In this document: one piece after another, positions 8,069-24,894 of the stretch
Layout: each line of letters begins with the position of its first letter
How positions within the stretch are numbered: position 1 is the stretch's first letter
Virus record (IMG/VR): IMGVR_UViG_3300027733_000034
Coordinates: 1 to 64,000 of that record
DNA: 64,000 bases
Origin: a virus
Reading direction: 5' to 3' (one strand)
Position numbers and translations under genes: made by a program
The notes under the pieces: generated by a model
What the model was told of the DNA's origin: nothing
The model's database searches: none
The model's input: the letters and a program-made list of their open reading frames with translations, nothing else

Positions 8069-8884
8069 TTAAATATAACCAAATTGTTGTTGATATTTTT
8101 GAAAATTGTTATCTATCCAGAGACAAACATCTTTGCCTAAAATTTCTTCATAGTCTATTTTAACTGGAGAAATTTTACGTCTGATGGTGTGTAGATCAGG
8201 AGTCAATCCATAAACCGCATCATCTTCTTTAATAGATTGTTCCACATTATCAAAATCATGGCTAAAAGGAGGTAGACCTAAATAATTGTAAATTCTATTT
8301 AATTCTGTAAAAGGGTTGGTGGTTAGATCTTCTGCTCTAATATATAGAACACTTTGATCTATACTTTCTAAAAAACATTGTTCCATTCTTTCTAGGGCCA
8401 TACCAACTGGTACTGATTTAGACCATTCTACTACTCTCTTGGCTGTAGAGGTTCCAGTCATTTTACTATGGTTTTGAATAGATTGATGACTTTCTTGTCT
8501 CTTGCGATAAATCTTTTCCATAGAAGCCATGATACTTTTAAGATCTCTTACCATACATATCATTTTAGGTTTGTATGGCATAAAGGCTTCAAACCAACGA
8601 TAGTGGATGGTTCCTCCACGGGTCTTAATACATAAATGGGGTCTATTACTATAAGATTCTGAATATCCTTTTAAACCGCCCCAACAAAAACCTCTCCAAG
8701 CCCTAACAGCTAACTCTGTGTCAATGGCTTTAACTTCTGGAGTGTTGGTATAATTCATACGGGCTCCATACAAATATTCTAAAACCGGATCTGTAGGAGT
8801 TGCTGCTATGCTTGAGTTTTGGTTAAGAATACATTGCAATAATGTAGACATACTCCGAGGCATAGAAGAATTAAAAAAGATCAT
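8069..8884 (-). CDS. sulfotransferase family protein (P-loop PAPS-binding fold)
   Basis: N-terminal SSMPRSMSTLL (5'-PSB-like), MVRDLKSIMASM (3'-PB-like), RAEDLT..P. Confidence 0.8.
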   Translation of the reverse strand: MIFFNSSMPRSMSTLLQCILNQNSSIAATPTDPVLEYLYGARMNYTNTPEVKAIDTELAVRAWRGFCWGGLKGYSESYSNRPHLCIKTRGGTIHYRWFEAFMPYKPKMICMVRDLKSIMASMEKIYRKRQESHQSIQNHSKMTGTSTAKRVVEWSKSVPVGMALERMEQCFLESIDQSVLYIRAEDLTTNPFTELNRIYNYLGLPPFSHDFDNVEQSIKEDDAVYGLTPDLHTIRRKISPVKIDYEEILGKDVCLWIDNNFQKYQQQFGYI

Positions 8885-9475: not shown

Positions 9476-10798
9476 ATGGCACTCAAGACCCAAACTTTTA
9501 ATGATTTTTGTGAAAATACTAATCCCCAAACCTGTGATTATTTGATAGGGATTTGTAATGATGGTTCAAATGAATTCAGAGTTCTTATCTCTGATGTAGG
9601 AGCTTACTCTTTAGACAATCAAAATTCTATAGCACCTATATGTGGTAATAATGATATTAACGGATCTAGCTGTTCTGTAATTGGTGGTGGGTGTGGTAAT
9701 ACTATTAATTCTGAAGAAGGTTCTACCATCTCTGGTGGTAGAAACAACACTTTACAATGTGGATGGGCTCCTGTAATTGGTGGTGGTCAGGGCAATTATG
9801 TGTGCGGCGGAAGTTCTACAATTGCCGGAGGAAAGTACAATTGTATAGGCTCTGGAGATTGTACTCATGGGGGTTCTATAGGAGGTGGTTCTTGTAATGA
9901 AATTTATTGCGGAGATGAAGCTACTATAGGTGGTGGACGTAATAATACTATTGATTATGCGGACTGTGCTACTATTGGTGGCGGTTATAGCAATTATATA
10001 GAAGGCGATTCTGGTACAATTTCAGGTGGATATAATAACAGTGTTAGTGGATATGCTTCTACAATTAGCGGCGGATATGATAATTGTTCTTGGAACGGAG
10101 CTTACAACACAGTTAGCGGTGGCTATAGCAATGAAATAACTTGGAACACAGATGGTGGAGTCATTGGTGGGGGGTCCAATAATAGCATTCATGCTTGTGG
10201 AGATTCTGGTACTATTGGTGGTGGTTATAGTAATGATATTTGTCGACATGCCATCGGTTCAACCATAGCCGGTGGATATAACAATGTAATTAATGCTTGT
10301 GCTTGCAATTCTTCCATCGGTGGCGGTTTAAATAATACAGTCGGAGCCAATTCTCACAGTTCTGTAATTGCTGGTGGATGTAGTAACGCTGTCAATGGTA
10401 ACTGTTCTAGTATCTTGGGTGGTGGAGAAAATACTGTAAATGGACACTATAATGTTCATATTATTGGATCTTGTATTACATCATGTAAAAATGATACTAC
10501 ATTTGTTAATAATTTGGTATCTTTCGGGAATGTAATAGCTAGTTCTGGATTTCCAGCCGGTGGACCTGGTAATGTTGGTTATGGATTTGATACTGGAGAT
10601 GGAGATACTGGTTTATTCAGTTTTAATCCAAATCTTTCTGGAAGCAATGATGGATGGGTATCTCTTGTTTCAAATGACCAAGAAGTTCTTCAAGCTGGAA
10701 ATGCTGGTGTGAATTACATTCGTATGAAATCACCAAACGGAACTGCTTATAACATAACTGTTACAAATTCTGGTTCTTTAACAGCCGTTAGAGCCTAA
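9476..10798 (+). CDS. Cys/Gly-rich repeat protein, probable beta-helix/beta-roll fibre or adhesin
   Basis: about 17 repeats of (S/G)TI(G/S/A)GGxxNxI with a period of 15-17 aa; C-terminal SPNGTAYNITVTNSGSL typical of fibre ends. Confidence 0.75.
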   Translation: MALKTQTFNDFCENTNPQTCDYLIGICNDGSNEFRVLISDVGAYSLDNQNSIAPICGNNDINGSSCSVIGGGCGNTINSEEGSTISGGRNNTLQCGWAPVIGGGQGNYVCGGSSTIAGGKYNCIGSGDCTHGGSIGGGSCNEIYCGDEATIGGGRNNTIDYADCATIGGGYSNYIEGDSGTISGGYNNSVSGYASTISGGYDNCSWNGAYNTVSGGYSNEITWNTDGGVIGGGSNNSIHACGDSGTIGGGYSNDICRHAIGSTIAGGYNNVINACACNSSIGGGLNNTVGANSHSSVIAGGCSNAVNGNCSSILGGGENTVNGHYNVHIIGSCITSCKNDTTFVNNLVSFGNVIASSGFPAGGPGNVGYGFDTGDGDTGLFSFNPNLSGSNDGWVSLVSNDQEVLQAGNAGVNYIRMKSPNGTAYNITVTNSGSLTAVRA

Positions 10799-10881
10799 AT
10801 ATCTATAAGGAATCGCCTCTTATGGGTGTAAGAGGATTACAACGAATCCGTAAATCCCCAACAAAATAAAAAAAAATACAT

Positions 10882-11115
10882 ATGGAAATAGTAACTCAAG
10901 TCAAACAAACCGTAACTCTTGATACAATAGAAGTAATTGCAGTAAGAGATCTTTTTGAAGAAAAGACAGTCATTGCTCGTATCAAAGGTCTTCCTCGTCC
11001 AGTAGTTCTCTGGAAGGGTGATGCTGAATATACAGCAGCTGGTGTTTGGACTAATGAAACAGTTGTTGCCCGTGCGACAACAGTTCTTAGTGCATCTGCT
11101 ATTAACTGGGCTTAA
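10882..11115 (+). CDS. small hypothetical protein
   Basis: 77-aa ORF followed by a terminator. Confidence 0.7.
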   Translation: MEIVTQVKQTVTLDTIEVIAVRDLFEEKTVIARIKGLPRPVVLWKGDAEYTAAGVWTNETVVARATTVLSASAINWA

Positions 11116-11135
11116 GCGTAGTTAATTAAAAATTT

Positions 11136-11170
11136 AATGGGATAGGGTTTAATTCCCTATCCCATTTTTT
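11136..11170. terminator. intrinsic terminator between convergent genes
   Basis: 12-bp stem AATGGGATAGGG/CCCTATCCCATT followed by a T-run. Confidence 0.8.
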
Positions 11171-11192
11171 ATGCTTTGATGTAATTTGTTAA

Positions 11193-14156
11193 TTAATTTA
11201 CGTAAGCAGCTTCATTTGAGAATATCAAAGCTTGAATCAGTGTTTCCCAAGGAGAGAATGCTACGCGTTCTACCAATTCTCCTTGGTTAACAATAGCTCT
11301 TTTAGGATCTTTGTTATTCATTTGTTGCTTAAATTTAGCTTCTGCTAATTTTTTACCTTGAGCTGTAATAGTTTCAGCTCCGGTTTTAACACTAGCTTGT
11401 TCTTTATTTTCTTTGATTAAGAAATCCAAAGCCATCTTTCTTTCTTTAGGAGTTGGATAACGCTGTAAAACAATTTTGAACACTGCTGTAATACCTTTAT
11501 CTGTATTTTTTTCTTTGACCACAGCGTCTACTAATTCCGGGCGTTGAGATATCTTTTGAACTACTTCTGCTACTAACGGACTATTCATTAGGAATAGAGC
11601 TTGTTGAGGCACTACTGTAGAGGCTCTGCGGGTATTGGGTTGATCTGGATTAGACATATCAAACTGCATCAATACATCTGGCATATCTAACCTGTCTATG
11701 TAAGCATAAGCAGTTCTTCTAAAAATGATTGGCTCTTCTGAAACATTGAAAGAAGGTCCCCCATACGGCTCTCTTTGCAATACTCTGCCCATGCTCAATA
11801 AAGAATCTCTATAAGCTTCAAAATCCAATCTTCTTACATTAGCTCTCCACAAAAGATTGTTGCCTGGATCTATTTTGCTATATTCTTTTAATGTATCTAC
11901 ACTAAAGGTATTGCTAGATTGTTGATATACTTTGGAAAGCATGATTGCTTTGTGCAAAGCCTTGACACTCCATGCTGGTTTCTGTGGACCGTAGTCTGTC
12001 ATAAACCAAGTTGCTAAGAAATCTAATAATTCTGGATGGGTTGGATTGCCAGCCGAATTACCTAAATCATCCGGTGTTTTAACCAAACCTTCACCAAAAT
12101 GATACATCCAAACCCTATTAACCAAAACTCGAGCTGTCAAAGGATTATCTTTGTTTGCAATGGCTTCTGCTAATTCTAGTCGACCACTTTCTTTTGAACT
12201 AAAAGGAGTTTTTTCTGGATTCAATATTTCTAAAAATCTTCTAGGTACCACAGTGACTTGTCCAGGTATAGGTGGATTGCCTCTTGGAAACAAAGGAGAG
12301 TCTGTGGGTTTGGCTGCATCTTCAACAGCCATGGCTCTAACTAGACCATTATTGGAGGTGAGTTTAAATTCATTAATTTGTTGAATAAAATTGGAAGCTC
12401 TTAATTTGTCTTGCATTTCAATAGACCATTTCTTGGCTTCTACTCTCATAGTTTCAAAATTAATGTTCTTAGCCAAATTCAAAGATGTTGGAAAAACAGC
12501 CATGTTGTAAGGATCCTTATCATCCGGATCAAAAGCGTTGTTGGTTATTTGAACAAACAAATTTGCTCGTTGAGATTCAAATTCTTGGAACAACTTGCCC
12601 ACTAATTCTGCGACAGCATGTATATCATCTGGCAAAGGTTGTGGTTGTTGTTTAAGAAAATTGATTACGATTGGGGAATATGTTTTTGTGTCTTGCAACA
12701 TCTTAGACAAGACGTCTTCTCTATTTTCTTTGGTGTGAACTAATTTGAAGAACGGTCCTAGAATTTTGCCGTTGGGATTAAATTGACGACCCACTGCACT
12801 CTCAATGTGCCTTGCTATTCTAGCATCCCATTTATTTTTAGTTTGAATCTCTGCAGCTAGCTTTTTACGATCTGCATTTGAATCTTTGCCCATTAAAATA
12901 ATATACTCAGCTATAGAAGAAGCGTTTTTGCCAAAGAAGTCTGCTTCTTCTCTTTGAATCTTGTAAAATGCTTCAACTGCTTTTTGTTCTAGTTCATTTA
13001 GTTTGGTTTGAAATTCTTGGAAACCTTCTTTTTTGCTAATTATTGGTCCTTCGGTTGGTTCTGTACAGCTAAGAAATACTCCCTTCAAAGCATAGTAGTC
13101 TGTAATGGTCAACGGATCAAATTTGTGATCATGGCAACGAATACAGGCTAGAGTCAAACCCAACATGCCTCTGCCTACAGCATCAATACGATCGTTTATT
13201 GTATCACTGACATTGTTGAATCGTTGACCAATGGTCATGAATCCCAGAGCTGCTAAATTAGAAACGTTGTTATCTGGAATTCTATCTGCAGCCAATTGAT
13301 TTTTTAAAAATGTATCATAAGGCATGTCTGTGTTGATAGCATCAAAAACCCAATTTCTATAGGTCCAAGCATATGGCAAACGGTAATCATCTAACCTTTG
13401 AAAAGTTGTGATGCCAGTGGTATCTGAATATCTTGCAGTATCCAACCAATGTCTTCCCCATCTTTCTCCATATCCTTTGTCTGCTAAAAGTCTATCAATT
13501 ACTTTTTCATAAGCTTTTGGAGATTCATCTTGAATAAATTGTTCAATTTCCTTTGGAGTCGGAGGCAAACCAATAAGATCAAAATAAGCTCTTCTTAGTA
13601 AAATTTCTTTACTTGCAAGAGGAGCAGGTATGATGCCTTTTTCTTCTAATTTAGAAAGAATAAAATAATCAAGCTTATTATAGCACCAAGATTCATTTTT
13701 AACTGTTGGCACCTTGGGAACCTGAGGTACTTTGAATGCCCAATGATCTCTTTTGTCTTTGAGTTCTCCAGAAGCTCTCGTATCATAAGCTCCTTGTTCA
13801 ATCCATTTAGTCAGCAAAGCTATTTGTTCATCAGAAAGCTTTTTCTTTTCAGGCATCCTAAGATCTCCATCCCAGTTGATAGCTTTGATAAATGTGCTTT
13901 CTTTAATATTATGAAAGTCGATTACCTTGCCATTTTCTCCTCCTTTGAGGAGGCTTTCATGAGAATCTAAGCTAAGGCCTGCTTTAGTTTTGCCTTTGGT
14001 AACAGAATGACAATCCATACATTGCTCTGTAAGCAGAGGCAATATCTCTTTGTCAAAAGTCTGTTGCTGTTCAGGAGTAGGATCTACTCTTCCAAAACTA
14101 GTTACGATGAGCAGTGAGCTCATCACCACACTCAACCCAACGTATGTTTTTCTCAT
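11193..14156 (-). CDS. PSD1 and planctomycete cytochrome c domain protein (PSCyt1 + DUF1549/PSCyt2 + DUF1553/PSD1)
   Basis: signal peptide; CMDCH heme motif; HWAF, LLRRAYFDLIGLPPT, GERWGRHWLDTARYSDT, CIRCHDHKFDP, SGRLELAEAI..NPLTARVLVNRVW..HFG, PTHPELLDFLA, PQQALFLMNS; ATG 14156 lies 1 nt after the DUF1501 stop. Confidence 0.93.
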   Translation of the reverse strand: MRKTYVGLSVVMSSLLIVTSFGRVDPTPEQQQTFDKEILPLLTEQCMDCHSVTKGKTKAGLSLDSHESLLKGGENGKVIDFHNIKESTFIKAINWDGDLRMPEKKKLSDEQIALLTKWIEQGAYDTRASGELKDKRDHWAFKVPQVPKVPTVKNESWCYNKLDYFILSKLEEKGIIPAPLASKEILLRRAYFDLIGLPPTPKEIEQFIQDESPKAYEKVIDRLLADKGYGERWGRHWLDTARYSDTTGITTFQRLDDYRLPYAWTYRNWVFDAINTDMPYDTFLKNQLAADRIPDNNVSNLAALGFMTIGQRFNNVSDTINDRIDAVGRGMLGLTLACIRCHDHKFDPLTITDYYALKGVFLSCTEPTEGPIISKKEGFQEFQTKLNELEQKAVEAFYKIQREEADFFGKNASSIAEYIILMGKDSNADRKKLAAEIQTKNKWDARIARHIESAVGRQFNPNGKILGPFFKLVHTKENREDVLSKMLQDTKTYSPIVINFLKQQPQPLPDDIHAVAELVGKLFQEFESQRANLFVQITNNAFDPDDKDPYNMAVFPTSLNLAKNINFETMRVEAKKWSIEMQDKLRASNFIQQINEFKLTSNNGLVRAMAVEDAAKPTDSPLFPRGNPPIPGQVTVVPRRFLEILNPEKTPFSSKESGRLELAEAIANKDNPLTARVLVNRVWMYHFGEGLVKTPDDLGNSAGNPTHPELLDFLATWFMTDYGPQKPAWSVKALHKAIMLSKVYQQSSNTFSVDTLKEYSKIDPGNNLLWRANVRRLDFEAYRDSLLSMGRVLQREPYGGPSFNVSEEPIIFRRTAYAYIDRLDMPDVLMQFDMSNPDQPNTRRASTVVPQQALFLMNSPLVAEVVQKISQRPELVDAVVKEKNTDKGITAVFKIVLQRYPTPKERKMALDFLIKENKEQASVKTGAETITAQGKKLAEAKFKQQMNNKDPKRAIVNQGELVERVAFSPWETLIQALIFSNEAAYVN

Positions 14157-14157
14157 A

Positions 14158-15525
14158 TTAAACAATTATATCTTTAATTACTTCACCAAAATTATCTGTC
14201 AATCTAAAATTACGACCATTGTAATTGTATGTCAATTTCTTATGATCAAATCCCATCAAGTGCAAAATAGTTGCATGCAAATCATGAATGGTAACAATAT
14301 CTTCAACTGCTTTAGCCCCTGTCTCATCTGTCTTACCGTATCTCATTCCACCTTTGACATTCCCTCCAGCCATCCAGATTGAGAATGCTTTGCCATTGTG
14401 ATCTCTACCAGGAGTACCTGCTCCGCCGCCAGCAGTTGCTGTGCGACCAAATTCTCCGCCCCATATTACCAAAGTAGAATCAAGTAGTCCGCGTTGTTTT
14501 AAGTCTGTAAGCAATCCAGCAATAGCTGTATCGTATTTTGCCGCGGTATTAGTCATATTGAGCTTAATGTTTTCATGATGGTCAAACCCTCCAACATTGA
14601 CCTGAACAAACCGCACTCCTCTTTCTACTAATCTACGAGCCACCATTAACTTGGCTCCGTCTTCTGTACGTCCATAAAGGTCTTTAATATTTTCTGGTTC
14701 TTTAGATACATCAAAAGCATCCGTAGCTTCTGTTTGCATTTTGAATGCAGTTTCAAATGCTTCAATACGAGATTCTAGTTGAATGTCTTTTTGAAGCTTT
14801 TCCATGTGCATGAAATTCATGCTACGAGAAAATTCAATTTGTCTGCGCTGTCTTTCTTGTGTAGAGAATTGACTGGTAAGGTTTGCTAATATCTCATCTG
14901 AACGCATTCCTTGACGATATTGAACATTGCAGCCTTGGAACATTCCGGGTAAGAAAGCACATTGTCTCCAATTTGGATTGCCATTCAAAGAAATGAATCC
15001 GGGCATGTTTTGATTTGCTGTACCAAGACCATATACCATCCAGCTACCAACACTAGGCTTGGGTAATTGAGAATCTCCGGTGTTCATCATCTTAGCAGCG
15101 AGATCGTGATCTGGAATAGGGGTTTGCATAGAGTTAATAATAGCTAACTCATCTGCATGGGATCCTACTTTACTCCATACTTCTGAAATGTTCAATCCAG
15201 ATTTGCCAAACTGAGGGAATTCAAACGGAGAAGCAAATAAGAATCCGCCGCTCTCGGCTTTCATTCCATCTTTGGCTTTTAATTCTGGTTTATAGTCAAA
15301 AGTATCAATATGGGAAGGTGCTCCACTAGCAAACAATTGAATGATTGCCTTAGCTTTTACAGGGAAGTGAGGATTCCTAGCAGCCAGAGGGGATGCAGCT
15401 TCTGCTGTATTTGCATTAATACCATAAAGAGCAGCTAGTGATAGACCACCCAGACCTGCTCCAAAGTCTGTGAGGAATTCTCTACGGTTGAGAGAGGAAT
15501 TGGGATGATTGCCGCAGTCGCTCAT
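14158..15525 (-). CDS. DUF1501 family protein (Tat-exported, sulfatase/alkaline-phosphatase-like)
   Basis: twin-Arg LNRREFL signal; GAPSHIDTFDYKP, ARRLVERGVRFVQV, DHH, GEFGRT, GRDH, HDLHATILHLMG, RLTD; start moved to ATG 15525. Confidence 0.93.
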   Translation of the reverse strand: MSDCGNHPNSSLNRREFLTDFGAGLGGLSLAALYGINANTAEAASPLAARNPHFPVKAKAIIQLFASGAPSHIDTFDYKPELKAKDGMKAESGGFLFASPFEFPQFGKSGLNISEVWSKVGSHADELAIINSMQTPIPDHDLAAKMMNTGDSQLPKPSVGSWMVYGLGTANQNMPGFISLNGNPNWRQCAFLPGMFQGCNVQYRQGMRSDEILANLTSQFSTQERQRRQIEFSRSMNFMHMEKLQKDIQLESRIEAFETAFKMQTEATDAFDVSKEPENIKDLYGRTEDGAKLMVARRLVERGVRFVQVNVGGFDHHENIKLNMTNTAAKYDTAIAGLLTDLKQRGLLDSTLVIWGGEFGRTATAGGGAGTPGRDHNGKAFSIWMAGGNVKGGMRYGKTDETGAKAVEDIVTIHDLHATILHLMGFDHKKLTYNYNGRNFRLTDNFGEVIKDIIV

Positions 15526-15530
15526 ATAAC

Positions 15531-15538
15531 TATTTATA
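15531..15538 (-). promoter_or_regulatory. T4-type late promoter TATAAATA for the DUF1501 operon
   Basis: TATAAATA-GTTAT-ATG. Confidence 0.65.
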
Positions 15539-15548
15539 CCTTTATAGT

Positions 15549-15584
15549 TCAAACGCCTTCAGAACCGAATCTGAAGGCGTTTGA
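15549..15584. terminator. perfect 15-bp inverted repeat (terminator/insulator hairpin)
   Basis: TCAAACGCCTTCAGA-accgaa-TCTGAAGGCGTTTGA. Confidence 0.7.
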
Positions 15585-15604
15585 GATTTGTTTTTATCTA
15601 ACTT

Positions 15605-15835
15605 TTAATACGAGGCTGTACAAGTAACCTTCAATAGATTACGATTACAAACCTTTGTAGAGAAAGACTTGGTCATAGATCGCTTGAAGCTATGTACGTC
15701 TCGTTGCTCTGAAGGACTGACATACATAAATTCTCCTGGCTGTAGAGCTCGCATAAGGAAAGCTACGGTGGGGTTAGAATTAGGACGTCCTGCTTTGTTG
15801 GAGTAGATGGCGTATTTTACGTTTTTGATGTTCAT
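15605..15835 (-). CDS. small basic protein, possibly DNA-binding
   Basis: 76 aa; TTGAAT-N17-TATATT promoter at 15866-15894. Confidence 0.65.
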   Translation of the reverse strand: MNIKNVKYAIYSNKAGRPNSNPTVAFLMRALQPGEFMYVSPSEQRDVHSFKRSMTKSFSTKVCNRNLLKVTCTASY

Positions 15836-15900
15836 ATATTGTTTGTTGTTTTACTGAATGATTTAAATATATTAGAAAATTGCTGGGAATTCAAGATTTT

Positions 15901-16701
15901 TTACAAAGATTCTTTTAAGGCTTGGACCAAAGAAAACATTTTTAGTTTAAATTGTCTCCAGCACCGATCGATGGTTTGATTGGCTTTAAGCTTGTCGGAC
16001 ATACTTGTAGGAGGTTTGCTAATACTTTTTAAGAAAAAAGTATTGTTTTTAAAAATATCATAAGCATAACGGGGTTGAGACATATCATGAACCCAGTTTA
16101 TGTCTACAAATTTTTCCCTAGGCATCGTTAATACTTCATCTAACAAATTAAGAATTTCTTGTTTGTCTCTTTTCTTTTTAAAATAAGAAACTATATTATG
16201 CCCCAATTCTCCTAATTGAGCTTCTAATTCTTTGGGTTCTGTATAATAATAAAACCAATCTTCTTCAGTTTCTCCAGATAATTTAGAGGCAGCTTCATCA
16301 TATTCCGGAGATTGTTTTTTATATTCTTGATTAGCATGTAAAATTTCATGTACCAAAGAAGATAATGCTAAATCTGGATTATCTATTATAAGATTTAAAC
16401 CAATTATAATGTAGGAAGATCTCTTATACATTTGATGCCAGGAAGCTCTGTCTGGAATGTCTTGAATCCAAACATCAATTCTTTTGCGTCCTAAATAAAA
16501 TTGTCCTAAAAGAAATTTCTTTTCTTTGTGTAGTCGGTCTTTAAGATCTTTTAAAGCCTCAGCTCGAGTAGCATTGGTCAATCTACCTCTTCCTTGAAGG
16601 TTTTGATCTCGAAAAGAAGTAATCCACTGTTTAATTTGTTTAGTAAACTTCTGTTTCGTAATATCATCTTCTACAGTAGAAAATTTAGACTCTGTAAGCA
16701 T
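15901..16701 (-). CDS. zincin-like (HExxH) metalloprotease-domain protein
   Basis: LVHEILHANQ followed by YY..PKELEA. Confidence 0.65.
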   Translation of the reverse strand: MLTESKFSTVEDDITKQKFTKQIKQWITSFRDQNLQGRGRLTNATRAEALKDLKDRLHKEKKFLLGQFYLGRKRIDVWIQDIPDRASWHQMYKRSSYIIIGLNLIIDNPDLALSSLVHEILHANQEYKKQSPEYDEAASKLSGETEEDWFYYYTEPKELEAQLGELGHNIVSYFKKKRDKQEILNLLDEVLTMPREKFVDINWVHDMSQPRYAYDIFKNNTFFLKSISKPPTSMSDKLKANQTIDRCWRQFKLKMFSLVQALKESL

Positions 16702-16712
16702 AAGAAATATAC

Positions 16713-17069
16713 TTAGGTCTTGTAAGGAAATTGAACTGGTGTCACTGTTACTTTAACTAAACCCCGATCCACAAACCCTAATTGTTTAGCTGCGAATTTA
16801 TTGACATCTATAATTCGCTTTTTAATATAAGGTCCTCGATCTTCTATAACCGCCACAATAGACTTATTGGTGTCTTTGACTGTAATTATTACTTTGGTTC
16901 CAATGGGTAAAGTTCGATGAGCAGCTGCTGGAATTTTACGGTTTAATCTTTTGCCGGTAGAAGAAATTTTATTTTCAAATCCGTACCAAGAGGCTAAACC
17001 AGTTTGAGAGTTGGCCTGGGCTGATTGTAATGAGAAAAGAGATACTAAGAATGTTAGAAAAATTTTCAT
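16713..17069 (-). CDS. rlpA: RlpA-like double-psi beta-barrel lytic transglycosylase
   Basis: signal peptide; GLASWYG, AAHRTLPIGT, DRGPY, RIIDV..AA..LG. Confidence 0.88.
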   Translation of the reverse strand: MKIFLTFLVSLFSLQSAQANSQTGLASWYGFENKISSTGKRLNRKIPAAAHRTLPIGTKVIITVKDTNKSIVAVIEDRGPYIKKRIIDVNKFAAKQLGFVDRGLVKVTVTPVQFPYKT

Positions 17070-19563: not shown

Positions 19564-19638
19564 TGGTGTCGCTGACTGGATTCGAACCAGCAACCAATTT
19601 CTTAGAAGGAAATTGCTCTTCCATTGAGCTACAACGAC
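19564..19638 (-). tRNA. trnR: tRNA-Arg(TCT)
   Basis: cloverleaf; anticodon arm ATTTC-CT-TCT-AA-GAAAT; TTCGAAT; CCA. Confidence 0.95.
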
Positions 19639-19670
19639 ATAAACTACTTATCCTAAAATATTATAAAACA

Positions 19671-19700
19671 CTCTTGTCCTATCCATTAAACGATCGAGAC
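19671..19700 (-). pseudogene. tRNA 5'-half remnant (Arg-like)
   Basis: GTCTCGA TC GTTTAATGGATAGGAC A AGAG then the sequence breaks; has its own promoter at 19709-19737. Confidence 0.6.
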
Positions 19701-19708
19701 ATGTAAAG

Positions 19709-19737
19709 ATTATAGATTTCCAGAGAAGGGAAATCAA
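19709..19737 (-). promoter_or_regulatory. sigma70-like promoter
   Basis: TTGATT-N17-TATAAT. Confidence 0.7.
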
Positions 19738-19740
19738 TGA

Positions 19741-19900
19741 AAAAGATGTGTTTTCCTCGCGAGACTTGTCACATCATTCAACGATCGACTACCATACGGC
19801 AATCCAATAACGTCTAAGGCCAGTGTTTAAGAAAGAGCTGGAGATACAAACATAAACTGACCAAAACTTACTCCAGGTTGTCCGGCTATCTAGACCGGCA
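19741..19900 (-). ncRNA. unassigned structured RNA downstream of tRNA-Ser
   Basis: GC-richer non-coding stretch with several hairpins and crossing helices CTGGAG/CTCCAG and GGTCAGT/ACTGGCC. Confidence 0.45.
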
Positions 19901-19905
19901 CTAAG

Positions 19906-19998
19906 TGGCGGATAGAGTGGGAATTGAACCCACGGTGCCTTTAAGGAGCACGACAGTTTAGCAAACTGCTGTAGAAAACCGACATCTACGTCCCATCC
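19906..19998 (-). tRNA. trnS: tRNA-Ser(GCT)
   Basis: GCAGT-TT-GCT-AA-ACTGT, long variable arm, G73, CCA; A instead of U at position 8. Confidence 0.9.
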
Positions 19999-20003
19999 AA
20001 AAG

Positions 20004-20077
20004 TGGAGCGGGTAGAGGGAATCGAACCCTCCTCATTAGTTTGGAAGACTAAGGCATTACCACTATGCTATACCCGC
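20004..20077 (-). tRNA. trnG: tRNA-Gly(TCC)
   Basis: GCGGGTA/TACCCGC acceptor, U73, CCA, anticodon TCC. Confidence 0.95.
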
Positions 20078-20078
20078 G

Positions 20079-20120
20079 TGGTGTCCTTTATATGCACAGA
20101 TAAATCTGTACACTAGGGAC
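20079..20120 (-). ncRNA. 42-nt CCA-terminated hairpin (minihelix-like RNA or tRNA remnant)
   Basis: GTCCCTAGTGTACAGA-TTTA-TCTGTGCATATAAAGGAC-A-CCA. Confidence 0.45.
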
Positions 20121-20128
20121 ATTTAAAA

Positions 20129-20204
20129 TGGCACGCCGAGTAGGTACCGCCCCTACATAAGACGGTTTTGGAGACCGTTGCCTTGCTTGTCGAGCCATCG
20201 GCGC
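20129..20204 (-). tRNA. trnW: tRNA-Trp(CCA), non-canonical D/T loops (copy B)
   Basis: ACGGT-CT-CCA-AA-ACCGT; T-loop GGCGGTA; G73, CCA. Confidence 0.85.
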
Positions 20205-20258
20205 GTCTATACCCGCAATTTGTTGTTCAATCCTTTGGTCTTTGGATTTCATGTCTTT

Positions 20259-20720
20259 TTATTTATTTAAAGCATAAGTCTGACTAAAGATATCTTTTTT
20301 AATGACTCCGTAATCACCTGGACCATGCTTAACAATATAATCTTCTCCAGTCTTATATTCTAACTCTGCTCCCCAAGAAGTCTTTACTTTGCCGTCTGAA
20401 TCTGCTAGCTTAGCAAGCTTTACAATCTTCTTAGGAGAGGCAGAACCGTCTCCGTTGTCATCCTTCAACTCTTGAAACTTTTCTGGAGGCATAGAATACT
20501 TCTCTCCTTTTGGACCTGTCATAATATAGAACCCAGCTTTGTATTGCTGACGGCCTTCGAGTGTTTGAAGGGTTCCGTCTTGACTAGCTACCTCATAAGG
20601 TTCTATGGCTGGCTTTTTATAGGTCTGAAAAGAACCTTGTTGAAACCATTCATCTGTGATTTGTTCAATAATGATTCTTGTATAAGCTTCTTCTAGAAGT
20701 TGTTGGTCTTTGGTTTTCAT
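20259..20720 (-). CDS. PGDYG-family protein with KDxxLLEEAY leader
   Basis: TLEG...GEKY, GEDYIV.HGPGDYGVI..DIF..TY. Confidence 0.8.
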   Translation of the reverse strand: MKTKDQQLLEEAYTRIIIEQITDEWFQQGSFQTYKKPAIEPYEVASQDGTLQTLEGRQQYKAGFYIMTGPKGEKYSMPPEKFQELKDDNGDGSASPKKIVKLAKLADSDGKVKTSWGAELEYKTGEDYIVKHGPGDYGVIKKDIFSQTYALNK

Positions 20721-20750
20721 GTTATATGCTTGTTATATGCTTGTTAAGAT

Positions 20751-20826
20751 TGGCACGCCGAGTAGGTACCGCCCCTACATAAGACGGTTTTGGAGACCGT
20801 TGCCTTGCTTGTCGAGCCATCGGCGC
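20751..20826 (-). tRNA. trnW: tRNA-Trp(CCA), non-canonical D/T loops (copy A)
   Basis: identical to 20129-20204. Confidence 0.85.
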
Positions 20827-20835
20827 GTTTGAAAG

Positions 20836-20910
20836 TGGCTCCTGGAGTAGGGCTCGAACCTACAACATCCTCGTTAACAGCGAGGCGCTCTACCATTGAG
20901 CTATCCAGGA
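20836..20910 (-). tRNA. trnN: tRNA-Asn(GTT)
   Basis: canonical cloverleaf, CCTCG-CT-GTT-AA-CGAGG, G73, CCA. Confidence 0.96.
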
Positions 20911-20916
20911 ATGTTG

Positions 20917-21303
20917 TTATCTATTAAGATCGTATTCGTTCATTCTATCTTCTGGAGATTGTGGTAATTCACTTACATCCCGGAAGCCAGGGCCGTATAT
21001 TTGAAACCAACTTCTGTCTGAAGTACCACCATTGTCTAATTCTTTTCCGGTAATCACTTCTACAGCCGTAGCTGGATCATTATGAAATTCTCCTTCTACA
21101 TCAAATCCTAAAGCAAACTTGTCTGATTTTATTTGATTTGCTACGGCATTTTCAAAAGAGCTTCCTTTAAGAGTATACAAATCACCACCGTATTCATCTA
21201 TCTGAGCTACGTACCAAGTGTTGCTTGATTGTGGTTCTGGGTTTTCTTTTAATAGGACCTTTAAATAGGCTTCTTGTAATAACGCTTTGTCTTTAGAATT
21301 CAT
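20917..21303 (-). CDS. acidic hypothetical protein with KDxxLLQEAY leader
   Basis: MNSKDKALLQEAYLKVLLKE. Confidence 0.75.
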   Translation of the reverse strand: MNSKDKALLQEAYLKVLLKENPEPQSSNTWYVAQIDEYGGDLYTLKGSSFENAVANQIKSDKFALGFDVEGEFHNDPATAVEVITGKELDNGGTSDRSWFQIYGPGFRDVSELPQSPEDRMNEYDLNR

Positions 21304-21370
21304 GTTTATATTCTTAATTATATTAATATTATATTAAAAGGAAGCATTTGCACGAAAAAATGCAAATTAA

Positions 21371-21445
21371 TGGTCGTGACGGTGAGGATCGAACTCACGT
21401 GGACTAGTTCCCAAAACTAGTGCCTGTCCTCTAGGCTACGTCACG
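21371..21445 (-). tRNA. trnP: tRNA-Pro(TGG)
   Basis: C1-G72, CTAGT-TT-TGG-GA-ACTAG, CCA. Confidence 0.95.
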
Positions 21446-21451
21446 TTAAAA

Positions 21452-21526
21452 TGGAGCTCAGTATCGGAATCGAACCGATCAACAAGGGTTTTGCAGACCC
21501 TCCCTTAGCCAACTAGGTCACTGAGC
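21452..21526 (-). tRNA. trnC: tRNA-Cys(GCA)
   Basis: AGGGT-CT-GCA-AA-ACCCT, U73, CCA. Confidence 0.92.
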
Positions 21527-21529
21527 AAA

Positions 21530-21603
21530 TGGTTGTCTGGGAAGGTAACGCTCCTTCGTCTTTCGATTATCAGTCGAGAGCTCTACTTTTGAGCTACCAG
21601 ACA
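21530..21603 (-). tRNA. trnI: tRNA-Ile(GAT), non-canonical elbow
   Basis: CTCGA-CT-GAT-AA-TCGAA; D-loop AAAAGTA; T-loop AGCGTTA; CCA. Confidence 0.88.
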
Positions 21604-21606
21604 TTT

Positions 21607-21682
21607 TGGTCCCCTAGCTAGGATTTGAACCTAGATCGTCCGAATCACAATCGGAAACACTAAACCTTTGTGCTACTAAGGG
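21607..21682 (-). tRNA. trnH: tRNA-His(GTG) lacking encoded G-1, with A73
   Basis: TCCGA-TT-GTG-AT-TCGGA; acceptor CCCTTAG/CTAGGGG-A-CCA. Confidence 0.9.
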
Positions 21683-21692
21683 GATATGAAAT

Positions 21693-21769
21693 TGGCAACC
21701 CCAGTCGGATTCGCACCGAACATCTGTTGATTGAAAGTCAACTATCCTAACTAATTAGACGATGAGGTC
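21693..21769 (-). tRNA. trnE: tRNA-Glu(TTC), non-canonical elbow
   Basis: GTTGA-CT-TTC-AA-TCAAC; T-loop TGCGAAT; CCA. Confidence 0.9.
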
Positions 21770-21780
21770 ATTTATAAAAA

Positions 21781-21859
21781 TGGTGGAGCTTATCGGAATC
21801 GAACCGATCTGATATTCTCATTGCAAATGAGATGACCACACCAAGCAGTCCCAAACCCC
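21781..21859 (-). tRNA. trnA: tRNA-Ala(TGC)
   Basis: G3:U70 pair, TCTCA-TT-TGC-AA-TGAGA, A73, CCA. Confidence 0.93.
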
Positions 21860-21866
21860 AATAAAA

Positions 21867-21970
21867 TGGAGCCAACAGTCGGGATTGAACCGACGACCGG
21901 CGGTTTATAAGAACTGTCTCGGTTGGTGACAACTCTCAAAACCGCTGCTCTACCACTGAGCTATGTTGGC
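21867..21970 (-). tRNA. trnT: tRNA-Thr(TGT)-like gene with a 29-nt hairpin insertion (putative intron) in the anticodon
   Basis: perfect acceptor, D, anticodon and T stems plus CCA; 36-nt anticodon loop TTTG[AGAGTTGTCACCAACCGAGACAGTTCTTA]TAA. Confidence 0.8.
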
Positions 21971-21982
21971 GAATAATAAAAA

Positions 21983-22058
21983 TGGTGAGCCTGGTTGGAC
22001 TCGAACCAACGACCAACTGGTTAAAAGCCAATTGCTCTGCCAACTGAGCTACAGGCTC
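21983..22058 (-). tRNA. trnK: tRNA-Lys(TTT)
   Basis: canonical cloverleaf, CT-TTT-AA, CCA. Confidence 0.96.
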
Positions 22059-22064
22059 TTAAAA

Positions 22065-22152
22065 TGGTGGGTAGTGTGGGTAACGATCCCACAGAGCATT
22101 TACATGCGCCGGTTCTACAAACCGGACCGTCTCCTTAACGGTATAACTACCC
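22065..22152 (-). tRNA. trnY: tRNA-Tyr(GTA)
   Basis: CCGGT-TT-GTA-GA-ACCGG, long variable arm, T-loop ATCGTTA, CCA. Confidence 0.88.
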
Positions 22153-22174
22153 TTTATACAAACTTATATTAAAC

Positions 22175-22250
22175 TATCAAAGAACAAAATTGGTGTGAGA
22201 CTTGTATCTCCGCTGTTAATAATTATAACCGGAAATGTGAGGGAAGCCAA
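22175..22250 (-). promoter_or_regulatory. tRNA operon promoter with leader hairpin and boxA-like element
   Basis: TTGGCT-N17-TATAAT (22250-22222); TGTTCTTTGATA at 22186-22175. Confidence 0.6.
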
Positions 22251-22303
22251 CTTTTTTTGTTTTTAACAGTTCACAAACCAGATCCGCAACGGTAAATATT
22301 GTT

Positions 22304-23122
22304 ATGAAATCACGATCTGAGAGATGGAGTATCGGGGCTGGAAAATATAATGAAGAACAATTGAAACAAAGACAAGAAGATTATAACAAAAATCCTGATG
22401 AGTGTTTGTTCTGCAAAAACTCAATGCCATACATTGCTTTATATGAAAGAAACAAACGTAAATTCTGTAATAGATCTTGTGCAGCTAAACACAATAATCA
22501 AAATCGTCTACAATCTAATCTTACGCGCAAAACAAACTTTGTATATCAAAAAGGACTAACAAAAGAAGCATGTTGCATTATTTGTCAAGCAAACATTAAG
22601 ATAGGAAAAAACTATAGTGCAAAGAAGGCTAAATGTGTTGATTGTAAAATAACTAAAACAAAAATTATGATGTGTAAGTGTTGTTCTAAAGAATTTAATA
22701 CGTCTGCTATTCGTAAGTGTTGTTCTGTAGAATGTTCTAAACGTTTAAAACAAAGGGGAGGTAGTCTGGGTGGAAAAATATCAGCTTCAAAGATTGTTAA
22801 AAGATCTAGAGATGAAATAAAATTATATAGTTTCTGTAAAAATTATTTTAATTCTGTAAGACACAATGAAATTATCTCAGATGGTTGGGATGCAGATATC
22901 ATTATAGATGATTACAAATTGGCTATACTCTGGAATGGACCTTGGCATTACAAACAATTGTCACTAAAGAATCATTCTTTAGCTCAAGTACAAAACCGAG
23001 ATAAAATCAAAACAGATGTTCTAACATCAGCTGGATGGAAAGTTTTATTCTTTAATGATAATAAATATACTCCAGAAAAGGCATTTCAATTTATAAAAGA
23101 AAGTTGCAGGGGCGGGATTTGA
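22304..23122 (+). CDS. putative homing endonuclease (multiple Cys-rich Zn ribbons, C-terminal Vsr/DUF559-like PD-(D/E)xK domain)
   Basis: several CxxC and FCNRSC/CCSVEC motifs; WDADI...LAILWNGPWHY...RDKIK...GW; antisense to the tRNA array. Confidence 0.75.
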   Translation: MKSRSERWSIGAGKYNEEQLKQRQEDYNKNPDECLFCKNSMPYIALYERNKRKFCNRSCAAKHNNQNRLQSNLTRKTNFVYQKGLTKEACCIICQANIKIGKNYSAKKAKCVDCKITKTKIMMCKCCSKEFNTSAIRKCCSVECSKRLKQRGGSLGGKISASKIVKRSRDEIKLYSFCKNYFNSVRHNEIISDGWDADIIIDDYKLAILWNGPWHYKQLSLKNHSLAQVQNRDKIKTDVLTSAGWKVLFFNDNKYTPEKAFQFIKESCRGGI

Positions 23123-23194
23123 ACCACTTATGCGCGTTTTAGTAGCTTCTTGGTTATGAGCCAAGCTAGATCGACCAGACTTCTATACCCTGCT
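23104..23194 (-). tRNA. initiator-type tRNA-Met(CAT) with extra nucleotides in the variable/T region, no encoded CCA
   Basis: A1xA72 mismatch, CTTGG-CT-CAT-AA-CCAAG, TTCAAAT T-loop; 25 nt instead of about 10 between the anticodon stem and T-loop. Confidence 0.65.
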
Positions 23195-23288
23195 ATTAAG
23201 ATGTGAAAGAACTAACCGCCTTCCCACTTGACGACCCCGCGGTTGATGTAATAATTATACTACAGGGGTTAATGGGAAACCACCTTTT

Positions 23289-23882
23289 TTAAGAAAATTT
23301 TGGAGGAAGTGGTGTAGCTGGGGCTGAGGATGATGTTTTTAGATCTCCTGGAACACTCAAGGTTCTGCCTTTATAGGTGTTAGACAAATATCTAATCAAT
23401 TCTTTAGTCATACTCCAACCGGGTGGAATAACCTGATTATCCGGAAAGTTATTCAAAGTTTTTATCATGTAGAAAACAAAACTATCTTCTACATTATCTG
23501 CAACTATATCTGCTGCTTCATCATCTATATCTATTTTACTTAAGGCATTATTACCTCTAAGGTTGTCAGCTACTTTCATGAATTTTTTAAAAGTAGCCAA
23601 TATCGGTCCAGTAGGATCTAAATACCTTGCAGCTACAGCTTGAGCCATATCACCAGCAGTTTCTATAGCATCCAATGGATCAATTGAGTTCTGCCCTTGA
23701 CCAAAGACTGTTGATCCGACTCCAGCATTAAATGTAGTTTTGATTGCTCCCTTAACAGCAGAACCAACTAACTTTCCAGCCATTTTTTGATTTGCGGCTT
23801 TTTTAATAGCTTGTTTCAAATCTCCAAAGGTAATTGGAGCACTGGTTGCTTCTTTAAGATGAAGATACTGCTGGAAGGTCAT
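23289..23882 (-). CDS. hypothetical late protein, possibly a head internal protein
   Basis: MTFQQYLHLKEA N-terminus resembles T4 capsid-targeting peptides; ATAAGTA box upstream. Confidence 0.7.
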   Translation of the reverse strand: MTFQQYLHLKEATSAPITFGDLKQAIKKAANQKMAGKLVGSAVKGAIKTTFNAGVGSTVFGQGQNSIDPLDAIETAGDMAQAVAARYLDPTGPILATFKKFMKVADNLRGNNALSKIDIDDEAADIVADNVEDSFVFYMIKTLNNFPDNQVIPPGWSMTKELIRYLSNTYKGRTLSVPGDLKTSSSAPATPLPPKFS

Positions 23883-23914
23883 TTACTTACTTATAAGACA
23901 TAAGTAATAATACC

Positions 23915-24274
23915 ATGATAAGACATCTTAAAGCTCTCAAAGAATCTTTAGAAGGAAAGCCTCTTGCTGTGAGATCTTCTCATTGGTCTACTGTTAGAAA
24001 ACATCATCTTCAAAAACAACCTACCTGTGCGGCTTGTGGGGGTACACAAAAATTACAGGTTCATCACAAACAACCTTATCATTTGCATCCGGACTTAGAA
24101 CTAGAACCTACCAATCTTATTACTCTGTGTGAATATGGAGACATTGATTGTCATTTTAACATAGGTCATTATAGAGATTGGAAATCTTTTAATCCTAATG
24201 TGGAATTAGATGCTGCAGAAGAATTGTCTAGTCTCTCCCAGTGTCACACCACTTCTCAACCAGGTAAACCCTAA
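23915..24274 (+). CDS. HNH endonuclease family protein
   Basis: CAACG..LQVHHK.P....P.L.L..NLITLC....CH..GH. Confidence 0.8.
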   Translation: MIRHLKALKESLEGKPLAVRSSHWSTVRKHHLQKQPTCAACGGTQKLQVHHKQPYHLHPDLELEPTNLITLCEYGDIDCHFNIGHYRDWKSFNPNVELDAAEELSSLSQCHTTSQPGKP

Positions 24275-24432
24275 GGAATCCTTAATCAAGCTCAGAGAGG
24301 CCTTCAGCCTTCGGCAGGTGTCACTCCCCAATTGGGGGAAGTGTCTAGTCTCTCCTAGAGTCACACCACTTGTATCGCCCGGATATGTCCAGGCCGTTCT
24401 CCTCCGTGATAACCACAGAAGAGGCAGGTGTC
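24225..24432 (-). ncRNA. tandem pair of an unassigned structured RNA motif
   Basis: both units begin GACACCTGCC and end AAGTGGTGTGACnCTRGGAGAGACTAGACA (28/30 identical) with unrelated hairpin-rich interiors. Confidence 0.65.
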
Positions 24433-24437
24433 GCAAT

Positions 24438-24511
24438 CTCAGCAGGGTTTACGGTCTGCTACGTTCCAATTACAGACTTACCTAAATACCAGAGGGGTCG
24501 TGGTTACTGAG
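24438..24511 (-). ncRNA. structured RNA domain 3' of tRNA-Val
   Basis: closing stem CTCAGTA/TGCTGAG with internal hairpins ACCA/TGGT and GTCTGT/GCAGAC. Confidence 0.4.
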
Positions 24512-24516
24512 AAAAG

Positions 24517-24592
24517 TGGTGCTTGGGGTGGGACTCGAACCCACGATAATCTGCGTGTAAAGCAGGTACTTTAGCCACTAAGTTACCCAAGC
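24517..24592 (-). tRNA. trnV: tRNA-Val(TAC)
   Basis: TT-TAC-AC loop, perfect acceptor, CCA. Confidence 0.95.
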
Positions 24593-24606
24593 ATAAAAAG
24601 TAAAAA

Positions 24607-24677
24607 TAGGCCTGGGTGGAGTCGAACCACCACTACCTCTTTCAAAGAGAGGTGCACTGCCATTATGCAACAGGCCT
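24607..24677 (-). tRNA. trnQ: tRNA-Gln(TTG), no encoded CCA
   Basis: CCTCT-CT-TTG-AA-AGAGG; AGGCCTG/CAGGCCT acceptor. Confidence 0.88.
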
Positions 24678-24701
24678 GTGTTGCCATTATACCAATGGAC
24701 T
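24678..24701 (-). pseudogene. tRNA-Gln-like 5' fragment fused to the intact tRNA-Gln
   Basis: AGTCCAT TG GTATAATGGCAACAC directly abutting position 1 of tRNA-Gln. Confidence 0.5.
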
Positions 24702-24711
24702 ATAAAAAAAG

Positions 24712-24783
24712 TGGACCCGGTTGGATTCGAACCAACAACCCGGGTGTTATGAGCACCACGCTCTGCCCTTGAGCTACAGGTCC
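24712..24783 (-). tRNA. tRNA-CAT (Ile2/lysidine type or elongator Met), incomplete CCA
   Basis: GGACCTG/CGGGTCC acceptor, CT-CAT-AA loop. Confidence 0.88.
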
Positions 24784-24817
24784 ATTACTTACAAATTAAA
24801 ATATCAAAGATCAAAGA

Positions 24818-24894
24818 TGGTACTCCTAGCTGGATTCGAACCAGCACTACACAAATTTTAAGTTTGTTGACTCTGCCCGTTGGTCTATAGGAGC
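24818..24894 (-). tRNA. trnL: tRNA-Leu(TAA) with short variable loop
   Basis: ACAAA-CT-TAA-AA-TTTGT, 5-nt variable loop, A73, CCA. Confidence 0.92.

Follow-up and report, generated by a model that had tools for sequence, protein, structure and literature searches.

A Verrucomicrobia-type gene pair in a phage genome

Pairs of genes encoding a DUF1501 protein and a protein composed of the domains PSCyt1, PSCyt2 and PSD1 (PSCyt in the following) are among the most expanded gene families of Planctomycetes and Verrucomicrobia. Such modules have been described in these bacteria by Kamneva et al. 2012 (PMC3542564) and He et al. 2017 (PMC5615132), and the available excerpts of both papers call the function of DUF1501 and PSCyt unknown. 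Here we analysed a DUF1501-PSCyt operon that resides on a viral genome, namely within the first 64 kb of the IMG/VR virus record IMGVR_UViG_3300027733_000034 (131,532 bases in total); this stretch of 64,000 nucleotides is referred to as the window. In our reading, to which we assign a probability of roughly 0.6, the operon is a host-derived auxiliary cassette of two genes, which was captured from Chthoniobacteraceae, is expressed late in infection and exported, and provides a periplasmic DUF1501 hydrolase together with a haem-carrying partner.

The phage copy has much in common with the bacterial modules: the Pfam architecture, the twin-arginine signal of DUF1501, the signal peptide and CxxCH motifs of its partner and the adjacency of the two genes are the same, and the nearest homologues, which belong to Chthoniobacteraceae (54-62% identity), share the gene order. 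It differs from them by a guanine-plus-cytosine (GC) content of about 37%, by a spacer of 1 nucleotide (nt) between the genes (1-4 nt in phage pairs as compared to about 45-60 nt in cellular loci), by a T4-type late box and by its presence as a single copy, whereas bacterial genomes hold 26-78 paralogues. Moreover, the cytochrome partner appears to have been lost in most related phages. A second comparison is provided by T4-like cyanomyoviruses, which carry auxiliary metabolic genes for phosphate stress and photosynthesis. Like these genes, the pair appears to be host-derived, lies in a variable region, is under purifying selection, has adopted the composition of the phage and is preceded by a putative phage promoter. 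Unlike them, it encodes two exported proteins that would rely on the Tat (twin-arginine translocation), Sec and haem attachment machineries of the host, it points to a donor from the Planctomycetes-Verrucomicrobia-Chlamydiae (PVC) bacteria, and it belongs to a family without match in PHROGs v4 or among 50,697 GenBank phage records.

Both genes are intact, are encoded on the minus strand and meet at a TAA-T-ATG junction (Table 1), a spacing that suggests translational coupling. DUF1501 matches PF07394 over the entire profile (positions 1-390 of 390; E = 2.7e-130, 435.5 bits, gathering cut-off 27). PSCyt comprises all three of its domains in order and above their cut-offs, that is PSCyt1 (PF07635; 5.8e-10, 40.1 bits, cut-off 22), PSCyt2 (PF07583; 1.8e-70, 237.5 bits, cut-off 29.8) and PSD1 (PF07587; 1.6e-70, 237.8 bits, cut-off 28.5). 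An earlier note on this DNA had described two intact adjacent genes with a Tat signal, a Sec-type signal and two CxxCH motifs, and had named these four Pfam domains for checking; reading frames, motifs, junction and domains are all borne out.

The phage context, which the same note had assumed, is genuine as judged from gene content, and the source is a large uncultured freshwater T4-like phage. The record (CheckV completeness 61%, IMG/VR entry class virus) encodes a major capsid protein of the gp23 type (PF07068, E = 2.7e-90), which is at most 35% identical to any in the GenBank phage records and has its nearest relatives in T4-like cyanophages, as well as a gp55-type late sigma factor adjoining an SbcD-like gene (positions 109931-110569 of the whole record, G000; phrog_234, E = 1.2e-27). 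A family B DNA polymerase, a helicase, tail-fibre and baseplate proteins, two RNA ligases and 17 tRNAs complete the picture. The AT-rich composition of the operon likewise agrees with that of its surroundings (GC 0.36-0.39 in the operon bins, 0.275-0.435 across the window bins, genome mean 0.336).

The operon is not a chimera or an assembly artefact, since assemblies from two other studies reproduce the same junctions: contigs of run X2 tile positions 10400-16400 with 0 differences, and contigs of a ~93%-identical relative from run X3, which stems from a third study, span both operon ends. The runs with matching sequence are labelled freshwater metagenomes. In addition, the pair recurs on a second IMG/VR contig (L005; protein identity 97% for DUF1501 and 92% for PSCyt), where the surrounding genes are again those of a phage and are arranged differently. 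Comparison of the window with this contig indicates strong purifying selection on the pair: DUF1501 differs by 156 synonymous and 16 non-synonymous changes (ratio of non-synonymous to synonymous rates, dN/dS, 0.017), PSCyt by 375 and 101 (dN/dS 0.036). These results bear on the least credible of all explanations, namely that the operon represents misassembled host DNA or a recent, neutral and decaying pickup. The operon bins lie slightly above the genome mean in GC, as such an origin might predict. Against it stand the reproduced junctions, the intact frames, the low dN/dS values, a GC content about 20 points under that of the cellular copies, and the many relatives of the DUF1501 gene, which comprise at least 28 IMG/VR loci at 62% identity or more and, in a large protein database, at least 120 clusters (90% identity level) of 454-amino-acid (aa) proteins that are 73-97% identical, some of them on contigs of 220-250 kb. 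A phage that keeps one copy under strong selection also singles out one experimentally manageable member of the 26-78 paralogues.

Origin and spread of the pair

We conclude from the gene trees that the pair was captured as one unit from a Chthoniobacteraceae-like (Verrucomicrobiota) genome, because both proteins nest within Chthoniobacteraceae homologues that have the same gene order. Cellular genomes, one for each prokaryote species, were scanned and gave at least 595 DUF1501 relatives, the best 80 of which were used as cellular rows of the tree. All but one of these 80 are labelled Verrucomicrobiota or Planctomycetota, and the closest among them are Chthoniobacteraceae/Chthoniobacterales assemblies (57-62% identity, GC 55-65%); near-identity to a host copy with host-like GC, which the earlier note had named as speaking against its proposal, is not observed among them. 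The closest cellular loci have the same DUF1501-then-PSCyt order with a full-length PSCyt that is 42-57% identical, and most of the more distant ones have the opposite order. In a DUF1501 tree of 91 rows, which was built by a quick method and leaves out the duplicates L011, L013 and L014 as well as open reading frames (ORFs) shorter than 400 aa, all 11 phage rows form one clade (Shimodaira-Hasegawa-like approximate likelihood ratio test, SH-aLRT, 100). Four Chthoniobacteraceae/Spartobacteria copies make up the sister group (100) of this clade, which lies within a wider set of Chthoniobacteraceae sequences. A PSCyt tree of 17 rows, obtained by a careful search, gave a concordant picture: its 3 phage rows form one clade (100/100) that is sister (100/100) to L017, L018 and L022, and the flanks of the cellular sister locus L022 consist of ordinary bacterial genes. 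The five metagenome-assembled genomes that were tested contain 26-78 DUF1501 matches each.

Both trees name Chthoniobacteraceae as donor lineage, in line with the PVC link proposed before, and they provide a host hypothesis, that is Chthoniobacteraceae, for an uncultured phage group. The sole isolate found in the searched literature is a marine siphovirus whose title presents it as the first lytic phage of Verrucomicrobia (PMC4642752).

The module is common in uncultured phages. First scans of IMG/VR detected the pair in the window and two further contigs and DUF1501 alone in eight, and a wider scan with a diverse alignment yielded 70 DUF1501 loci at 30-97% identity, all but one of them at 30-45% GC and many with PSCyt-like neighbours in either order. 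In the large protein database, PSCyt proteins of 982-996 aa furthermore make up about 30 clusters (56-63% identity) that rank ahead of the first cellular ones. The statement of the earlier note that these are not known as phage genes is correct as far as GenBank phages, PHROGs and the literature searched by domain names and accessions are concerned, where no description of the module in phages was found; with 70 IMG/VR loci, it is nevertheless not rare. The earlier note had also asked whether phages with the pair form a clade; the phage rows of the 91-row DUF1501 tree and of the PSCyt tree do so, and most relatives carry DUF1501 only. The pair-bearing phages are the earliest branches within the phage clade of the DUF1501 tree, which is most simply explained by a later loss of the PSCyt partner. 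Retention of DUF1501 in phages that mostly dropped its partner marks the enzyme as the core component.

The cassette is not confined to T4-like phages. Two near-complete carriers (G002 and G006; 184-190 kb, GC about 0.44) have no gp23, T4-type polymerase or gp55, and their DUF1501 falls inside the same clade as the copies of T4-like phages. The T4-like G005, whose capsid protein is 82% identical to that of the window, and the non-T4 G002 share a tandem cassette in which a 423-aa DUF1501 paralogue precedes the main copy; the paralogues of the two phages are 71% identical. Another viral group includes three carriers rated 100% complete (152-171 kb) that lack gp23. A FastTree phylogeny of 126 rows requires at least 5-6 changes of the viral label, which we read as several separate viral captures (at least five groups). 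This count is rough, as the tree flags long-branch joins and the cellular query was centred on the phage copies, so that the nearest kin of viral groups B-E may be missing. The DUF1501 of one 149.8-kb IMG/VR contig (L121, locus GC 0.42) groups in this tree with the four cellular Chthoniobacteraceae sister copies and not with the main phage clade; it may have been captured independently, or the gene may have passed back into the host lineage.

The occurrence of the same gene clade in T4-like and non-T4-like phages, together with at least five viral DUF1501 groups, points to an accessory pool shared among PVC phages. What was found is a host-derived auxiliary gene, and its wider implication is that phages have taken up this hallmark PVC module more than once and passed it on among themselves. 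In its general form, namely that DUF1501, with or without PSCyt, is a mobile cassette that unrelated lineages of large low-GC phages of Verrucomicrobia and Planctomycetes acquired repeatedly and exchange with each other, this proposal is tentative and in our view short of probable. If true, it would imply a general requirement or advantage in infecting PVC bacteria, such as the release of phosphate or other nutrients in the periplasm or the disarming of an envelope feature. T4-like carriers would then express the cassette from late mRNAs with almost no leader, and in the group A contigs that bear DUF1501 (up to about 240 kb), T4-like phages of freshwater Chthoniobacterales would have been recognised for the first time.

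Export, fold and possible activity

DUF1501 is predicted to be exported via Tat: in its LNRREFL signal, R15 is invariant in 68/68 homologues, of which at least 90% retain R14. PSCyt begins with a hydrophobic N-terminal signal of the Sec type, and both export signals are conserved across the phage copies. Residues 1-7 of DUF1501 (15505-15525), which precede the twin arginines, read M-x-D-C-G-N-H and are invariant in six aligned phage copies; cellular relatives have other Cys/His-rich stretches in this place.

Given that phage copies retain these export signals, both proteins would have their place in the host periplasm during infection and not in the virion. The earlier note had also considered a virion component, and an enzyme associated with the virion, e.g. 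a tail depolymerase accessory, would be in keeping with the fibre-like genes near the pair, with the TAAATA box that a 440-aa ORF in this neighbourhood has as well, and with the late-looking promoter. It is very improbable nonetheless: the conserved Tat and Sec signals would remove both proteins from the cytoplasm, the site of virion assembly, the attachment of haem happens in the periplasm, and neither protein matches a PHROG structural family.

To which fold DUF1501 belongs was addressed by structure prediction. The AlphaFold2 model (predicted local distance difference test, pLDDT, 86.5) matched sulfatases and LtaS in Foldseek searches (E about 5e-6; best 4.6e-6, probability 1.00). Superposition by VIA-align gave Z scores of 19.8-20.2 with NPP enzymes (root-mean-square deviation 3.1-3.3 A over 242-247 residues), 19.9 with PafA (280 residues) and about 18 with sulfatases, the top rows being so close that they are nearly tied. 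The model thus assigns DUF1501 to the alkaline-phosphatase superfamily, with NPP and PafA at least as close as the sulfatases. The designation as a sulfatase-fold protein, as originally suggested, is to be corrected to this superfamily; DUF1501 also differs from S1 formylglycine sulfatases in that the motif [CS]-x-[PA]-x-R is missing from the protein of the window and occurs at only scattered positions, in 10/68 sequences, of the 68-sequence alignment. The core fold is common to DUF1501, NPP, PafA and S1 sulfatases, but identity amounts to only 9-14% and there is no significant sequence match to solved structures: the best E value was 0.33 for the single sequence and 0.051, to LtaS, for the profile. 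The latter match, used for alignment only, places the GGEFGR segment of DUF1501 on the 'DHG' segment of sulfatases and LtaS. Ten residues, D74, T75, D77, H140, D315, H317, E358, R361, R374 and H376, are invariant in 68/68 DUF1501 sequences, and the set formed by them and S71 is the family's own as compared to NPP, PafA and sulfatases.

NPP and PafA use a threonine nucleophile. In DUF1501, T75 and Asp and His residues are invariant and the fold matches at Z about 20, in a comparison made at the level of fold and residue conservation. We infer that DUF1501 is a metal-dependent esterase/hydrolase or transferase with an NPP/PafA-like core and an active site peculiar to the family; as to its reaction, cleavage of a phosphate (or sulphate) ester is our best guess.

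A narrower form of this proposal is that DUF1501 acts as a periplasmic phosphodiesterase/phosphatase that liberates phosphate from organic esters and thereby feeds synthesis of a ~200-kb genome in phosphorus-poor lakes. The best structural matches, NPP phosphodiesterases and PafA alkaline phosphatases, agree with it, as do the invariant D74-T75-x-D77, the missing [CS]x[PA]xR motif and the freshwater label of the runs with matching sequence. T4-like cyanophages carry phosphate-stress genes, pstS and phoA among them, and PhoD and PhoX are exported via Tat. We consider this proposal rather doubtful, however, as sulfatases score only about 2 Z units lower, a scavenging enzyme expressed late has little time to pay off, and phosphate release gives no evident role to a haem partner. 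In addition, the link drawn for PSCyt genes in the available excerpts of He et al. 2017 (PMC5615132) is with sulfatase neighbourhoods and the utilisation of carbohydrates rather than with phosphorus.

Alternatively, and along the lines of the earlier note, the exported pair may modify a phosphorylated or sulphated surface polymer and thereby block superinfection or prevent the adhesion of progeny to debris. Export signals are retained in both proteins, the promoter looks late, and genes for a sulfotransferase and an exported DPBB/RlpA-like protein are located nearby (Table 1). Moreover, the cassette moves between unrelated phage lineages, as host-interaction genes often appear to do. On the other hand, the presence of 26-78 such genes per donor genome suggests a nutritional role more than one in surface structure, and He et al. 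(PMC5615132), in the excerpts available, predicted periplasmic or cytoplasmic rather than outer-membrane or extracellular products. Such a remodelling of envelope or receptor is thus unlikely, and we favour a periplasmic enzyme that would cleave esters and release nutrients.

In the PSCyt partner, both CxxCH motifs are strictly conserved (Table 1), and in the second one, at the end of PSCyt2, this applies to C338, R340, C341, H342, D343 and H344 in 17/17 sequences. M101 is invariant among the 17 sequences as well and is a candidate axial ligand, so that C46-x-x-C49-H50 plus M101 would resemble a class I cytochrome c site. The PSCyt model is mostly helical (pLDDT 71, moderate confidence), and a sequence search against solved structures gave 0 matches. 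A link to DUF1800 was considered and dropped: no DUF1800-type partner was present beside solo or paralogous DUF1501 genes, and PSCyt has no DUF1800 match at E values up to 10.

Co-folding of the two proteins, as the earlier note had proposed, was carried out with two conserved PSCyt domains as two chains plus DUF1501, a set-up that differs from the one used for calibration. The complex scored 0.41 as compared to 0.00 for the best control, with runs agreeing in at least 50% of contacts and a partner pLDDT of at least 78. The tool's mark is reached by 58/80 solved complexes and 2/110 mismatched pairs; at scores of 0.60 or below, those reaching it are 7/80 solved complexes and both passing mismatches. 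The prediction therefore lends weak support to binding between DUF1501 and PSCyt. In the strain of run X3, 506 other letters replace 72 letters at window positions 14080-14153, between the DUF1501 stop and the PSCyt start, which could be an insertion or a different N-terminus of PSCyt.

Candidate late box, proposed course of infection and neighbouring features

T4 late promoters consist of TATAAATA, which is read by gp55. As the earlier note had pointed out, an exact copy of this box lies 5 nt before the ATG of DUF1501 (Table 1). The phage resembles T4 also in that its gp55 homologue lies by an SbcD-like gene and in that the core motif TAAATA is concentrated before structural genes; in contrast to T4 late promoters, only 5-8 nt separate the end of the box from the ATG, too few to accommodate a ribosome-binding site. 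Across the record, TAAATA ends 5-8 nt before the ATG in 20/155 predicted genes. As a control, no offset from 10 to 57 nt exceeds 2 genes, and internal in-frame ATGs are preceded by the motif in 0/495 cases. The genes with the box are mostly structural, 8/20 reside in the tail-fibre and baseplate block, and a GTAAATA lies 18 nt before the capsid gene. The box is absent from the six early-type genes that were checked (gp55, polymerase, helicase, sulfotransferase and two RNA ligases). It is present before the first cassette gene in the T4-like carriers L004, L005, L007 and L008, and absent in the carriers without gp55 (L006 and L012).

A late promoter is the natural reading because a gp55 homologue is encoded in the same genome, and late expression of the operon is plausible on these grounds. 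As the box leaves no room for a Shine-Dalgarno motif, the late transcripts would be leaderless or nearly so, and the position of the box in other genes suggests the same for late mRNAs across the genome. A Shine-Dalgarno-like motif was detected in only 9/155 genes of the record. A box-to-ATG spacing of 5-8 nt along with so few Shine-Dalgarno motifs suggests that late genes are expressed in an unusual way.

Two hairpins delimit the operon, in agreement with an observation made earlier, and in both cases 0/200 shuffles fold as stably (Table 1). The description as bounding elements stands with regard to stability, but the upstream hairpin has a terminator-like T-run on the plus strand only and none behind it on the gene strand. 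The downstream hairpin sits between the convergent PSCyt gene and a 77-aa gene on the plus strand and is usable in both directions.

The reading that we prefer, a captured, late-expressed and exported auxiliary cassette, would entail the following course of events. An ancestor of widespread large low-GC freshwater phages may have taken a DUF1501-then-PSCyt unit from a Chthoniobacteraceae genome holding dozens of such pairs, whereupon the pair would have drifted to phage base composition and the spacer shrunk to 1 nt. Late in infection, the gp55-type sigma factor of the phage would read TATAAATA and generate an mRNA with almost no leader. DUF1501 would then leave the cytoplasm via the host's Tat system and PSCyt via Sec, the latter receiving haem from the host cytochrome c maturation system. 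In the periplasm, DUF1501 would cleave a phosphate (or sulphate) ester, with the haem protein as a docking or redox partner. The benefit to the phage may consist in the release of nutrients, possibly phosphate, for building large genomes, or in an altered envelope component.

A number of observations weigh against this reading. The exact TATAAATA is not enriched in the window, with 12 copies found as compared to 10.98 expected and 39/100 shuffles reaching 12, so that the late-gene wiring asserted by the earlier note is plausible from the gp55 homologue and the 20/155 genes but gains nothing from the 8-mer itself, which is at chance level. With a Shine-Dalgarno-like motif in only 9/155 genes, the TAAATA core may instead serve as a signal for the start of translation and not as a promoter, and the late timing is deduced from sequence. 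Contigs of RNA library X4 cover positions 14153-15505 and 15604-15841 at 90-95% likeness, which is at most a hint at expression of DUF1501, with DNA carry-over as a possible source; being assembled contigs, they cannot show RNA ends, and PSCyt is covered in short pieces only, from which we draw no conclusion. Run X5 has no contig matching the region, which is not proof of absence. As to origin, the direction from host to phage follows from nesting in trees rooted at midpoint or by outgroup, and the phage has a GC content of 0.336, far under that of the proposed hosts, to which it is linked by gene phylogeny. As to the partner, 8/11 phage rows of the DUF1501 tree have no PSCyt, and two genomes that are 94-100% complete contain no PSD1 domain anywhere. 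Since most phages of the clade thus lack PSCyt, this protein would be dispensable or supplied by the host. Its model, with a pLDDT of only 71, has no PDB fold match by Foldseek at E <= 0.001 (best 0.12); we do not claim a new fold for PSCyt. Finally, the Z scores of phosphodiesterases, phosphatases and sulfatases with DUF1501 are only about 2 apart.

Table 1. Features of the DUF1501-PSCyt operon, its surroundings and related loci (window positions unless a contig is named).
Feature	Position	Strand	Remarks
DUF1501 gene	14158-15525	-	455 aa + stop; ATG at 15525, TAA stop at 14158-14160
PSCyt1/PSCyt2/PSD1 gene	11193-14156	-	987 aa + stop; ATG at 14156, stop at 11193-11195
Twin-arginine codons R14 R15 of Tat signal (LNRREFL)	15481-15486	-	
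First haem-binding motif CMDCH (C46-M-D-C49-H50, PSCyt1)	14007-14021	-	C46, C49 and H50 invariant in 17/17
Second CxxCH motif CIRCH (C338-I-R-C341-H342, then D343-H344)	13131-13145	-	End of PSCyt2
TATAAATA box, candidate gp55-type late promoter	15531-15538	-	5 nt before DUF1501 ATG
Upstream hairpin	15548-15585	.	Between upstream 76-aa ORF and operon; 16 pairs; -25.9 kcal/mol, z -8.7
Downstream terminator-like hairpin	11136-11166	.	12 pairs, T-runs on both strands; -19.8 kcal/mol, z -6.4
Sulfotransferase gene of the phage	8069-8884	-	Sulfotransfer_3, Pfam 1.6e-10
Glycine-rich repeat ORF, 440 aa, fibre-like	9476-10798	+	No Pfam match; GGATAAATA 8 nt before ATG
Small exported DPBB/RlpA-like protein	16713-17069	-	PF03330, 3.9e-18; PHROG 'lipoprotein precursor'; two genes upstream of operon
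17 tRNA genes, one array	19564-24894	-	
Two RNA ligase genes (phrog_562, phrog_968)	27295-28422 and 29882-30913	-	Beside tRNA block, as in T4
423-aa DUF1501 paralogue	L006 8727-9998; L008 8728-9999		Directly upstream of main copy; own RR signal; 28-29% identical to main copy
Papain-family cysteine protease gene	L006 5249-6283; L012 7542-8594		Close upstream of cassette in both non-T4-like carriers; PF00112, 1e-12 (L006) and 1.7e-13 (L012)

Among the neighbouring features, the sulfotransferase was considered as a clue to the host and dropped, since its nearest ESM Atlas clusters are 94-100% viral and hence uninformative in this respect. The array of 17 tRNA genes is consistent with a low-GC phage that differs in codon use from a high-GC host. 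In the related contig L005, the cassette directly adjoins a homologue of an RNA ligase.

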